Shown here: positions 36,696-45,171 of the stretch, piece by piece | Layout: the number at the start of each line of letters is the position of its first letter | How positions within the stretch are numbered: position 1 is the first letter of the stretch | DNA from: a virus | Virus record (IMG/VR): IMGVR_UViG_3300023180_000018 | Direction: 5' to 3' (one strand) | Length of the DNA stretch: 64,000 nucleotides | Position numbers and translations under genes: made by a program | Notes under the pieces: generated by a model | What the model was told of the DNA's origin: nothing | Database searches by the model: none | The model's input: only the letters and a program-made list of their open reading frames with translations

Positions 36696-36948
36696 TATTT
36701 GTCTCCTTTGGTAGATACCAATTTACAACTGTATTAACTCTAAAAGATCTCCAGGCCTGTTTATCTAAAGCCCATACTACTAAATGATCTGAATTTGCGC
36801 TTTGTTCTAAAATTTCTGGAACATTATGATTTGATAAAACAGGATTAAGAGTACATTCCATTACTCTCAATTCTCCAGTATCAATTTTATTAAACTCTAC
36901 TACAACAGCACCTTCTTTTGCAGCTTTTAAAAACTTATCCATTTCCAT
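36688..36948 (-). CDS. WYL_2/SH3-fold phage protein
   Basis: VEFNKIDTGELRVMECTL...VWALDKQAWRSFR. Confidence 0.75.
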   Translation of the reverse strand: MEMDKFLKAAKEGAVVVEFNKIDTGELRVMECTLNPVLSNHNVPEILEQSANSDHLVVWALDKQAWRSFRVNTVVNWYLPKETNNG

Positions 36949-37334
36949 TATTTCACCTTTTGTTTTTGAACATAATTATTTATCGCAGCTTTGATCGCAT
37001 CTTCTGCAAGGACACTACAGTGGATTTTGACTGGAGGGAGGGCGAGTTCTTCTGCGATGTCTGTGTTTTTAATATCCCCAGCTTGATCAAGACTGCGACC
37101 TTTAACCCATTCGGTAAGAAGTGAGGAAGATGCGATAGCACTTCCGCATCCGTAGGTTTTAAACCTAGCATCTTCGATAATTCCATCATCATTTACCTTT
37201 ATTTGTAATTTCATAACATCGCCACAGGCAGGCGCTCCAACCATACCTGTGCCGATGTCCTCATCCTCTTCTTCAAACTTGCCTACATTACGAGGATTTC
37301 GATAATGATCCATTACTTTGTCACTGTATGACAT
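36948..37334 (-). CDS. iscU: Fe-S cluster scaffold protein IscU
   Basis: YSDKVMDHY.NPRNVG, GAPACGDVM, KTYGCGSAIASSS, LPPVKIHCS (HscA-binding LPPVK). Confidence 0.97.
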   Translation of the reverse strand: MSYSDKVMDHYRNPRNVGKFEEEDEDIGTGMVGAPACGDVMKLQIKVNDDGIIEDARFKTYGCGSAIASSSLLTEWVKGRSLDQAGDIKNTDIAEELALPPVKIHCSVLAEDAIKAAINNYVQKQKVK

Positions 37335-43062: not shown

Positions 43063-43076
43063 TTATTGTTAAAAGT

Positions 43077-43149
43077 CGGATAGGCAGGGATTTGAACCCC
43101 AATCTTTGGCTATGGACACCAACGTGTTTAGTCTTTACACCACCTATCC
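43077..43149 (-). tRNA. Atypical tRNA-like element (nominal anticodon CCA, Trp) or pseudo-tRNA
   Basis: Acceptor GGATAGG/CCTATCC, D stem GTGT/ACAC, anticodon stem TTGGT/GCCAA with loop GTCCATA, T loop TTCAAAT; no encoded CCA end. Confidence 0.5.
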
Positions 43150-43153
43150 ACAA

Positions 43154-43241
43154 TGGTACCTGGAGCCGGACTCGAACCGGCACAGCCTATACGGCCGAGG
43201 GATTTTAAGTCCCTTGTGTCTACCAATTTCACCATCCAGGC
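43154..43241 (-). tRNA. tRNA-Leu(TAA)
   Basis: Cloverleaf with long variable arm, loop CTTAAAA, CCA end. Confidence 0.95.
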
Positions 43242-43254
43242 AAATTGTTGTATT

Positions 43255-43331
43255 TGGTCGGGGTAGAGAGATTCGAACTCCCGACATCCTGCTCCCAAAG
43301 CAGGCGCGCTACCAGACTGCGCTATACCCCG
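43255..43331 (-). tRNA. tRNA-Pro(TGG)
   Basis: CGGGGTATAGCGCAG...loop TTTGGGA...CCA. Confidence 0.95.
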
Positions 43332-43342
43332 AATTTGTAAAA

Positions 43343-43419
43343 TGGCGATCCGTACCGGACTCGAACCGGTGACCTCTAGCGTGACAGGCTAGCATTCTAA
43401 CCAACTGAACTAACGGACC
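43343..43419 (-). tRNA. tRNA-Asp(GTC)
   Basis: GGTCCGTTAGTTCAG...loop CTGTCAC...GCCA. Confidence 0.95.
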
Positions 43420-43424
43420 TAATT

Positions 43425-43508
43425 TGGTGGAAGGGGTTGGATTCGAACCAACGTAGCTCTCGCGTCAGATTTACAGTCTGATGGTTTTAACCACTCACCC
43501 ACCCTTCC
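43425..43508 (-). tRNA. tRNA-Tyr(GTA)
   Basis: Loop CTGTAAA, variable arm, ACCA end. Confidence 0.95.
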
Positions 43509-43599
43509 AATCTTTTAAACCAAGATAAAACAATACACCAGCCAAACTGAATAAAAATAGTACAACGATTTCGTGTGCGTATTGTTCTAACATAATATT

Positions 43600-43675
<76 letters not shown>

Positions 43676-43684
43676 ATTTTTAAT

Positions 43685-43712
43685 ATTCTACACTATTTTA
43701 TGAAAATGTCAA
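43685..43712 (-). promoter_or_regulatory. Sigma70-type promoter for the tRNA cluster
   Basis: TTGACA-16 nt-TAGAAT just upstream of tRNA-Asn. Confidence 0.7.
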
Positions 43713-43897
43713 CCGGCTAGGTAAGTTGTTGATTTGTTTGCTAATTTTTGATATGCTTTATATTTTTCATGAACTTCATCAGCTAAAGCTCTTTTTAAAA
43801 CCTCAATGTCAGATTTTAAAGAATCATTTTCTTTCTTTAATTCTAAAATTTCAATTCTAAGTTGATCGTATATTGAAGTCTTATCTTCTATTTTCAC
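43709..43897 (-). CDS. Small coiled-coil protein
   Basis: Heptad pattern; AGGAG RBS before GTG. Confidence 0.55.
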   Translation of the reverse strand: MKIEDKTSIYDQLRIEILELKKENDSLKSDIEVLKRALADEVHEKYKAYQKLANKSTTYLAG

Positions 43898-43911
43898 AAT
43901 TGCTCCTAAAT

Positions 43912-43987
43912 TGGTGCCGCCACCAAGAATCGAACTCGGGACCTACTGATTACAAATCAGTTGCTCTACCTGCTGAGCTATAGCGGC
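43912..43987 (-). tRNA. tRNA-Thr(TGT)
   Basis: GCCGCTATAGCTCAG...loop TTTGTAA...ACCA. Confidence 0.95.
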
Positions 43988-44150: not shown

Positions 44151-44300
44151 TTATCTACCTTGGCCTCTATACTTTTTGTATGATCGCTTTTTACTTTTAT
44201 TTAAACTAGATGTTTTAAATAAACCATTCCCAATAGATGTTCCTTTTTTTGTAGGTTCTGGTCTTGCAACAGAACCTAATCCTCCACGTGATTTCGCCAT
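44151..44300 (-). CDS. Small basic protein (49 aa)
   Basis: Manual translation MAKSRGGLGSVARPEPTKKGTSIGNGLFKTSSLNKSKKRSYKKYRGQGR; GAGGAG RBS. Confidence 0.7.
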   Translation of the reverse strand: MAKSRGGLGSVARPEPTKKGTSIGNGLFKTSSLNKSKKRSYKKYRGQGR

Positions 44301-44319
44301 AACTATCTCCTCATATTAG

Positions 44320-44649
44320 TGGCAGTATTCTGTTGCCAGGAACTGCCGAAACCCCGCGATGGCTATTGCTGTTTAGGCAGCCATTGCATAGTCGTAAACG
44401 TCATCGTTTGCGTTTATATTTAATTTGATCTTTTAACGTCACTATCAGGACGATTCTCCACAATATTTGCGTTGCCCGTCGAATCCAGAACGCCCCCATC
44501 AGAAATGCACTTACCACAATTGGTTCCTATTAAATGATACTTTTCTATGTCACTTTCTTTTACATTATTACATATACATAAGTACATTTTTGGTGGAGGC
44601 GAGGGGAGTCGAACCCCTGTCCGCACAATACTCCTATTGCTTCTACGAA
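44320..44649 (-). ncRNA. ssrA: Circularly permuted (two-piece) tmRNA; tag (A)ANDDVYDYAMAA
   Basis: Acceptor piece ...GGACAGGGGTTCGACTCCCCTCGCCTCCACCA ends at 44591; coding piece starts GGGGGCGTTCTGGATTCGAC at 44497; 7-bp acceptor stem with G3.U70; tag frame 44411-44373; outer boundaries approximate. Confidence 0.9.
44420..44587 (-). CDS. Miniature Bfd-like Cys-motif peptide encoded in the tmRNA intervening segment
   Basis: MYLCICNNVKESDI...GTNCGKCI resembles Bfd MYVCLCN...G.QCGKC with a shortened spacer. Confidence 0.55.
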   Translation of the reverse strand: MYLCICNNVKESDIEKYHLIGTNCGKCISDGGVLDSTGNANIVENRPDSDVKRSN

Positions 44650-45171
44650 TTAGTAATAAAACACATGGTTATCTATTTCAGTAGCTTTAGACATACTCAA
44701 AGACCATGCTGGTTTAATTCTTGTAGCATGATAAAATAAAGAACCATTAGTATTATCATGATATTTATCATAATCTATTAAAAAACTTTCTGCCAATTTA
44801 TAAACTTTTATATAATATCTATCACTTATTTTTTTATTATCAAATAAATTTCTTTTGTGTCTTTGACAATACCAAGAAAACTGGCAAGCTTTTTTGTTTT
44901 TTTGTTTAACAACTCCACAAATAGTATCTGGAAAATTATAATGATTTACTCTGTTAATAGTAACGTTGGCTACTGCTAACTGACCTTCTAAAGGTTCTCC
45001 AACAGATTCAAAATATATATTAGCTGCTAAGCATTCAATTTCACTTTTATCTATTATATTCACATCTTCTTCAATGTCAACTCTTTCTAATACAATTGAT
45101 TCATTAAATCCATTACGACTAGTAGTATTTACTGAAAACAATAATAAACAGGTCAAAAGTATTATTCTCAT
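44650..45171 (-). CDS. Cell wall hydrolase (SleB/Hydrolase_2 family)
   Basis: Signal peptide, CLAANIYFES.GE, AVANVTINRV, FPDTICGVV, CQFSW, GSLFYHA, HVFY. Confidence 0.92.
   Translation of the reverse strand: MRIILLTCLLLFSVNTTSRNGFNESIVLERVDIEEDVNIIDKSEIECLAANIYFESVGEPLEGQLAVANVTINRVNHYNFPDTICGVVKQKNKKACQFSWYCQRHKRNLFDNKKISDRYYIKVYKLAESFLIDYDKYHDNTNGSLFYHATRIKPAWSLSMSKATEIDNHVFYY

Follow-up and report, generated by a model that had tools for sequence, protein, structure and literature searches.

A putative Bfd-derived mini-protein gene in the spacer of a permuted marine phage tmRNA gene

The window analysed here is the whole of a 64,000-nucleotide stretch of DNA from a virus (IMG/VR record IMGVR_UViG_3300023180_000018). 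ARAGORN identified seven tRNA genes in it together with one permuted (two-piece) tmRNA gene whose tag reads ANDDVYDYAMAA. The locus (Table 1) also matches two Rfam families well above their gathering thresholds: tmRNA_permuted (RF04321, 123.6 bits, gathering 47) and alpha_tmRNA (RF01849, 97.2 bits, gathering 50). It exhibits the architecture of a permuted tmRNA: the acceptor piece with its CCA end comes first, and the coding piece follows from G1 onwards, with the resume codon and a tag whose last residues form a hydrophobic AA tail.

Table 1. Features of the permuted tmRNA locus and other elements of the window discussed in the text.
Feature	Coordinates	Strand	Basis
Permuted (two-piece) tmRNA gene; precursor order acceptor piece - spacer - coding piece	44282..44683	-	ARAGORN; Rfam RF04321, RF01849
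3' tRNA-like domain, acceptor piece, CCA end at 44591	44591..44629	-	ARAGORN; sequence
Intervening segment (spacer), 93 nt, predicted to be removed at maturation: AAA leader (3 nt) and 30-codon ORF	44498..44590	-	Sequence; ARAGORN
Putative mini-Bfd ORF core, 30 codons, Cys4/Cys6/Cys24/Cys27, without stop before G1	44498..44587	-	Translation; 13 distinct homologues; dN/dS ~0.1; Bfd homology
ORF read-through into the mature tmRNA 5' part, 25 codons and TAA (44422-44420)	44420..44497	-	Kept as RNA, not as protein
Spacer closing stem, 5' arm, includes ATG	44579..44589	-	Fold; duplex -12.8 kcal/mol; pair counts
Spacer closing stem, 3' arm, codons 25-29 (G-K-C-I-S)	44503..44513	-	Fold; duplex; pair counts
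5' tRNA-like domain, coding piece; G1 = predicted RNase P site 44497	44471..44497	-	ARAGORN
tmRNA tag reading frame, ANDDVYDYAMAA then stop	44373..44411	-	ARAGORN
Candidate promoter for the tmRNA transcript, sigma-70-type, 12/12 match, within the upstream hydrolase gene	45053..45080	-	Consensus match only
Phage IscU (Fe-S scaffold)	36948..37334	-	Pfam NifU_N, 184.7 bits

The spacer reads AAA, an ATG (44587-44585), 29 further codons and then GGGGGCG, with G1 at 44497. The initial annotation of this DNA had described a 93-nt spacer starting with AAA-ATG and encoding 30 codons flush with the predicted RNase P site, and the same coordinates and translation were recovered here. An ATG ORF filling 97% of a 93-nt spacer occurred in 0.15% of 2000 composition-matched shuffles. 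Translation also confirmed that the frame continues in the precursor for another 25 codons past G1, up to a TAA separated by 8 nt from the resume codon GCA (44411-44409), giving 55 aa in total.

When the 55-aa read-through product was searched against proteins, the first homologues obtained were two called ORFs from short assemblies (P0002 and P0003). After DNA pattern scans of IMG/VR and the JGI metagenomes the collection included 13 distinct homologous spacers, on contigs of up to 165 kb. The tmRNAs that host them are diverged, with six tag families and differing T arms; two of the embedded-gene loci have an alphaproteobacterial GGCGGTACC-type T loop. The neighbours of one locus (L101), PhoH, TauD, plastocyanin and CsgF genes, represent a typical pelagimyophage-like setting. 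Twelve of the 13 spacer versions span exactly 90 nt from ATG to G1, after a leader of 3 nt in most of them and of 7 nt in two lineages. All four cysteines are invariant across the 13 spacers.

Of the 27 columns that vary among the six closest spacers, 21 are third codon positions (binomial P=2.9e-6), and in 18 every change is synonymous. TGT and TGC alternate in three of the four Cys codons without loss of any cysteine. Third positions account for 28 of the 50 variable columns in a wider set (P=8e-4), and pairwise dN/dS over the twelve 30-codon versions has a median of 0.10 and a maximum of 0.31. DNA identity to the window copy is 72-93% for the ORF versus 61-91% for the flanking mature parts of the tmRNA; the spacer would be more constrained than the tmRNA around it because a conserved protein is encoded there. 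The read-through tail, 23 to 41 aa long across relatives, is not conserved as protein. The third-position bias, the low dN/dS, the cysteine retention and the constant length together lead us to read the ORF as a selected gene: judged by its substitution pattern, it is real, translated and under selection. The initial annotation had proposed that the spacer carries a protein gene, naming the loss of the frame and of the Cys codons in homologous spacers among the observations that would speak against it. Both are clearly retained and the proposal stands.

Two other ways of reading this region were rejected. Antisense coding can be set aside, the frame that shares third positions being broken by stops in 12 of the 13 versions. 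An upstream in-frame start, GTG 44626 with AGGAG 4 nt before it, was the choice of the gene callers for P0002; it sits in the T arm, and neither this start nor its ribosome site is kept in L072-type or L084-type loci.

The 30-residue core carries the pattern M-Y-L-C-I-C ... C-G-K-C, which the initial annotation had compared to that of bacterioferritin-associated ferredoxin (Bfd). A phmmer search of the 30-mer against all PDB sequences returned four matches at E<=10, all of them Bfd of P. aeruginosa (E=0.024). With a profile built from 35 family members the same Bfd entries occupy the top four places (E=8e-5), the alignment being interrupted once, by a gap of 14 residues, and only Bfd reaches significant E-values in the PDB profile searches. 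Conversely, a full-length-Bfd HMM run over the 1644 six-frame segments of the window picked the spacer ORF alone (E=1.2e-6), so that the spacer copy is the only one this HMM finds in the window. Since the family profile matches only Bfd among the PDB sequences, and across one 14-residue gap, the peptide is a shortened Bfd homologue as far as profile comparison can tell, with about 14 residues gone between the Cys pairs (hereafter mini-Bfd). The relationship to Bfd suggested in the initial annotation is thus upheld by the PDB profile matches and by the Bfd HMM. The probability of 98.5% obtained with hhalign for mini-Bfd against full-length Bfd is given little weight because the Bfd set had been gathered via a pattern from the N-terminus of the peptide itself.

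C4, C6, C24 and C27 (C-x-C ... C-x2-C) are invariant in the 35 aligned members. Alignment confirmed that the two Cys pairs are separated by 17 residues here (Cys6-Cys24) versus 31 in P. aeruginosa Bfd; the gap is 21 residues in a sister subfamily with 34 codons (L132, P0029, P0036, P0038, P0042). The spacing of about 30 or more residues that goes with the helix hairpin is therefore not reached. Residues M1, Y2 and L5 of Bfd contact and dock into bacterioferritin (Bfr; PMC11303784), and their equivalents in mini-Bfd are M1, Y2 and I5. The comparison with Pfam Fer2_BFD (PF04324), proposed earlier as a check, gave a divided answer: the window peptide scores 16.1 bits, below the cut-off of 26 (E=0.015), through two stretches located at the two ends of the model, but 27 of the 35 family members match the profile weakly, with a best E-value of 1.4e-4. 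Another Pfam profile, zinc_ribbon_6 (PF14599), gives the window peptide 16.4 bits, also below its cut-off (27; E=0.0084), and is matched weakly by 17 of the 35 members. An AlphaFold2 model of the 30-mer computed from the 35 aligned sequences is of low confidence (pLDDT 63, pTM 0.25), and a complex prediction for the IscU of the window with mini-Bfd gave no answer (score 0.01).

A profile search of 1.84 billion representative proteins retrieved 43 clusters at E<1e-3. C4, C6, G21, C24 and C27 are invariant in this wider family. Some of the clusters continue with GG-x-L-x-S-T, which corresponds to read-through of the tmRNA 5' end. Many others end at a stop of their own after a short, unrelated tail, being free-standing genes of 35-36 aa in phage-like operons. 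The commonest free-standing form, the 35-aa P0007, is present in 43 or more contig blocks. In the L135-L137 lineage its start codon and the stop codon of a phage iscU gene overlap as TAATG, and a tRNA gene with a GCA anticodon loop comes next. Judging from this overlap, the P0007-type gene is translationally coupled to phage iscU in one abundant lineage. Most free-standing members do not lie beside iscU, and few of their varied neighbours have to do with Fe-S metabolism; the IscU link holds in a single context and is not universal. A conserved upstream partner of about 106-111 aa was considered for the free-standing genes and rejected, as these upstream proteins share no similarity.

The window also encodes IscU, a radical SAM/SPASM enzyme and ThyX. 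Its iscU is not adjoined by a mini-Bfd gene and lies about 7 kb from the spacer gene. A CheckV-complete relative of 162 kb carrying the embedded gene has three radical SAM genes but neither iscU nor a ferritin gene. Ferritin and bacterioferritin genes were sought in related phage records and none were found. A narrow pattern (CCACCA plus MYxCxCN) applied to 185,579 bacterial species genomes retrieved only ordinary bfd genes of 60-80 aa, none of them in a tmRNA. Searches of GenBank phages found no cultured phage with an embedded mini-Bfd gene: blastn with the tmRNA region gave only an 8% partial match, tblastn with the 30-mer found nothing, and tblastn with P0013 returned only noise and weak matches to enterobacterial bfd.

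The predicted fold of the spacer pairs the last two leader bases and ATG-TAC-TTA with codons 25-29, leaving UCUGAU single-stranded before G1. This closing duplex comprises 11-13 bp in the embedded copies (-12 to -14 kcal/mol); the same duplex in three free-standing genes is weak and interrupted (-3 to -8.5 kcal/mol). Across the embedded copies 91.7% of the stem cells are paired, versus 17-60% when the partner is slid. One stem pair is compensatory (U-A to A-U or the reverse), its 3' change being a synonymous Ile change, and in the two loci with 7-nt leaders (L101 and L124) the last base of the Cys27 codon changes together with its partner in the leader (G-C versus A-U). These pairings indicate that the closing stem is conserved in the embedded copies. 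Non-coding spacers of related phage tmRNAs have a closing stem of the same kind, and the stem is therefore a feature of the precursor into which the gene has been fitted. It covers the ATG, so the start codon would be occluded in the folded RNA. No Shine-Dalgarno sequence precedes this ATG, the upstream sequence consisting of CCUCCACCA and the 3 nt of the leader. AGGAG precedes the gene just downstream of the tmRNA, and neighbouring phage genes as well as other spacer genes carry a Shine-Dalgarno.

Relatives gathered via the neighbouring cell-wall hydrolase gene often have permuted tmRNAs as well, several of them with small ORFs of other kinds in their spacers. A scan with one common 5' tmRNA sequence yielded 119 loci with 82 distinct spacers. 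An ATG ORF covers at least 80% of the spacer in 15 of the 82, where about 4 are expected from shuffles; the distribution of ORF coverage is bimodal and the 50-70% class is depleted. Coding spacers have a GC content of 21-31% versus 35-48% for non-coding ones. Most of the coding spacers carry AAGGAG or AAGGA 6-8 nt before the ATG, with leaders of 10-14 nt, and stop at the TGA of a conserved TGAT that precedes G1. Mini-Bfd lacks both the ribosome site and the stop codon of these genes. Two further spacer ORF families likewise run flush with G1 without a stop. In a family of 41-codon spacer ORFs encoding a membrane peptide the sequence has diverged, with retention of the frame and of an L-V-T-Y-D-W-S motif. 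This distribution suggests that the spacers of related phage tmRNAs are a general slot for small genes. tRNA-like inserts were observed in the spacers of two further loci (L025 and L022).

We favour an interpretation in which the spacer of an apparently intact two-piece phage tmRNA gene doubles as a protein gene. In a set of marine T4-like phages, including pelagimyophage-like ones, mini-Bfd would reside in the tmRNA spacer instead of being free-standing, and the same spacer nucleotides would both encode the peptide and form the closing stem beside the acceptor stem. Transcription would start from an upstream promoter, for which Table 1 lists a candidate. With the ORF open as far as G1, only a precursor still uncut there could give a terminated product, and translation would take place on RNA that RNase P has not cleaved, with products of 55 aa here and 53-71 aa in relatives. 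Once cut at G1 the ORF would become a non-stop message. The variable read-through tail would be tolerated because free-standing homologues also vary after the 30-residue core. The product would most likely be a four-cysteine mini-ferredoxin that binds a [2Fe-2S] cluster or another metal. It might serve the many iron enzymes of the phage, either by passing electrons or iron to the assembly of Fe-S clusters or by mobilising iron of the host. That the gene is real and derived from Bfd appears highly probable to us; the interpretation taken as a whole, with its route of translation and its function in metal binding or Fe-S supply, is likely. For the cofactor specifically, the chances that it is a [2Fe-2S] cluster seem about even. 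A further step is rather speculative: the uncut precursor might give the mini-ferredoxin, and the RNase P-cut RNA the tmRNA that clears the non-stop ORF, the stem and the 90-nt spacing acting as a switch that joins Fe-S or iron supply to rescue capacity, with spacers serving as an expression slot for microproteins.

Three other explanations deserve attention, of which the most serious, if still improbable, accepts the gene but not its cofactor. The product could be a zinc-binding mini-protein resembling a zinc ribbon or knuckle which, for example, blocks or mimics host Bfd at bacterioferritin or binds another host target. The zinc_ribbon_6 profile indeed scores level with Fer2_BFD, about 14 residues of the Bfd fold are gone, the neighbours of the free-standing members point mostly outside Fe-S metabolism, and the retained Bfr-contact residues (M1, Y2 and position 5) would suit a competitor equally well. 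However, PDB profile searches are significant for Bfd only, the CxC...CGxC ligand pattern is that of Bfd, and the coupling of one abundant free-standing lineage to iscU recalls the NifU order. A second explanation, which we regard as somewhat less probable again, concerns the template. Here the excised spacer or the RNase P-cut precursor would act as a non-stop mRNA with almost no leader, and the same tmRNA would tag its product, so that peptide level is tied to trans-translation. The initial annotation had proposed such a route for the excised piece, and had suggested that translating the precursor might compete with maturation and might connect iron or Fe-S status with trans-translation. The stopless end of the ORF exactly at G1 in 12 of the 13 versions is consistent with this, as are the two other families that end likewise and the constant 3-nt leader of most versions, so unlike the longer leaders with ribosome sites found elsewhere; the 7-nt leader of two lineages is not. 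Where a tRNA gene encodes the CCA, its 3' end is usually made in two steps, an endonuclease cutting beyond the CCA and an exonuclease trimming back to it. Such trimming to the encoded CCA would destroy the 5' end of the spacer, which argues against an intact excised mRNA. Moreover, tagged products are normally degraded, which is hardly what strong selection on the peptide sequence would lead one to expect, and the ATG is base-paired in the excised hairpin.

According to the remaining explanation the ORF is untranslated and the spacer only a structured processing hairpin, its frame and Bfd likeness being due to chance or to the decaying relic of a captured gene. The absence of a ribosome binding site and the conservation of the closing stem would be expected of such an element, many related spacers are indeed non-coding, GC-richer hairpins, and the comparable ORF of a Coxiella 23S rRNA intervening sequence appears to be untranslated and decaying (PMC4990558). 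Neither a relic nor RNA constraint would, however, be expected to produce the third-position bias and a dN/dS of about 0.1, nor does this explanation accommodate the persistence of every cysteine through synonymous changes in three of the four codons, a length that is constant across lineages with different tags and T arms, or the amino-acid constraint that extends to the loop part of the hairpin. We consider it very improbable, and retain the reading of the spacer as a mini-Bfd gene.

If this reading is correct, a processing spacer thought to be disposable carries a conserved protein gene that is more constrained than the tmRNA itself, and the locus would provide a clear natural case of one RNA acting both as precursor of a stable RNA and as messenger. 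The absence of a ribosome site, the start codon within a stem and the lack of a stop before the RNase P site raise the question of how translation and maturation share a single molecule. The proteins would constitute a previously unnamed family of Bfd-derived four-cysteine proteins of about 30-36 residues in marine phages, and mini-Bfd may be the smallest Bfd-type module known. They are a further indication that the supply of iron and Fe-S is managed by large marine phages, whose IscU and radical SAM enzymes point the same way. There is also a consequence for annotation: gene callers miss spacer genes or fuse them with the tmRNA, as for P0002 and P0003, which were called with N-termini derived from the T arm.

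Each component of this arrangement has known counterparts. In NifU, an IscU-like N-domain is followed by a central Bfd-like [2Fe-2S] domain (PF01592 and PF04324). The same order, iscU and then mini-Bfd, is found in the L135-L137 phage lineage, and the window too encodes an IscU. It differs from NifU in that iscU and mini-Bfd are unfused and about 7 kb apart in the window, with iscU missing in the complete relative. The resemblance to Bfd itself (P. aeruginosa, PDB 4E6K and 6E6Q-S; PF04324) is closer, the M-Y-x-C-x-C and G-x-x-C-G-K-C motifs aligning residue for residue and the equivalents of the Bfr-contact residues being retained. In contrast to Bfd, mini-Bfd has 14 fewer residues between its Cys pairs, lacks a C-terminal helix of its own and scores less than the Pfam profile requires; its gene belongs to a phage and lies within that of a tmRNA, and its cluster binding is putative.

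The tmRNA shares its gene form and tag type with the two-piece tmRNAs of Alphaproteobacteria and of the marine myophage Melnitz and pelagimyophages (RF01849, RF04321), and a marine T4-like setting with these phages. In the Melnitz study a glutamine riboswitch is described for the 3' domain and no spacer gene is reported (PMC9004378); in contrast to the present reading, the intervening segment of these two-piece tmRNAs is treated as discarded RNA. A 2025 tmRNA database paper describes an intact tRNA-Ala gene and a repetitive element in intervening sequences, leaving ORFs unmentioned (PMC11915505). These inserts similarly indicate that the spacer tolerates functional cargo, but the cargo is RNA and not a protein gene. 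In the literature searched, no published description of a protein gene in a tmRNA spacer was found, which agrees with the statement of the initial annotation that the arrangement had no known description. Relative to that literature the putative gene would be a new form of kinds already known, namely two-piece tmRNAs, modules of the Bfd type and ORFs carried by intervening sequences in stable RNAs. The nearest analogue is the S23p ORF of the 23S rRNA intervening sequence in Coxiella burnetii and Leptospira, which on the evidence of that study is not made in vivo and is decaying (PMC4990558). Both are ORFs in a stem-closed segment excised from a stable RNA precursor. In contrast to S23p, the mini-Bfd ORF shows strong purifying selection and has free-standing homologues.

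The mini-Bfd peptide, a 30-codon four-Cys shortened Bfd homologue, is not the only product encoded in tmRNA spacers. At least ten other small-ORF families occupy this position in related phage loci (L172-L291, upstream of the match to GGGGGTGACTAGGTTTCGAC, the tmRNA 5' sequence used as scan query). Most of these ORFs carry an AAGGAG ribosome site, and most terminate at the TGA within a TGAT preceding G1, the first nucleotide of the tmRNA coding piece.

Mini-Bfd genes also occur in free-standing form. In L135, a related phage locus, the order is phage iscU, mini-Bfd and a tRNA gene whose anticodon loop reads GCA (Cys). The gap to the tRNA gene is no more than about 10 nt; in this lineage too, the small gene adjoins an RNase P-processed RNA. 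Another homologue, database protein P0009, is obtained from the L294 and L295 DNA only when TGA is read as Trp, a hint that the phage is recoded or that the call is a read-through. The representative-protein search also returned P0033, a called protein of 130 aa in which the N-terminal part of the cell-wall hydrolase runs straight into the second half of mini-Bfd, followed by the tmRNA read-through. The two proteins are joined at a short motif of similarity, ICxVxKQ, and the fusion reflects either a genuine deletion of the tmRNA acceptor piece or an assembly chimera.

In the window, the tmRNA is followed immediately downstream on the same strand by seven tRNA genes, with which it probably forms a single stable-RNA transcription unit. 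A sigma-70 consensus located within the cell-wall hydrolase gene is directed at this block and, judged by its sequence, is a candidate early promoter for it. A 49-codon ORF begins 17 nt past the 3' region of the tmRNA. Two related phage loci (L071 and L072) keep this start, and the product is without a Pfam match.

Features of the window and of related phage loci
Feature	Location	Details
Free-standing mini-Bfd	L135:2501-2700	
Free-standing mini-Bfd (P0009)	L294:554-733; L295:360-539	
49-codon ORF	window 44151-44300 (-)	very basic product; strong AGGAG ribosome site
Sigma-70 consensus	window 45053-45080 (-)	consensus match, perfect 12/12: TTGACA, 16 nt, TATAAT
Seven tRNA genes	window 43075-43987 (-)	Thr, Asn, Tyr, Asp, Pro, Leu, Trp
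Spacer ORF, membrane peptide	among L172-L291	41 aa; LVTYDWS motif
Spacer ORFs, soluble proteins	among L172-L291	54 aa and 64 aa
Spacer ORF, CxxC...HKC peptide	among L172-L291	32 aa; flush with G1
Spacer ORFs, several hydrophobic peptides	among L172-L291	22-32 aa
tRNA-Arg(CCG) in tmRNA spacer	L025:1349-1422	ARAGORN
T-arm-like motif in tmRNA spacer	L022:1176-1591 region	GGTTCGAATCC

The spacers of two related phage tmRNAs (L025 and L022) carry tRNA-like inserts and no ORFs. A tRNA within a tmRNA intervening sequence is described as a "unique feature" in the 2025 tmRNA database paper (PMC11915505).
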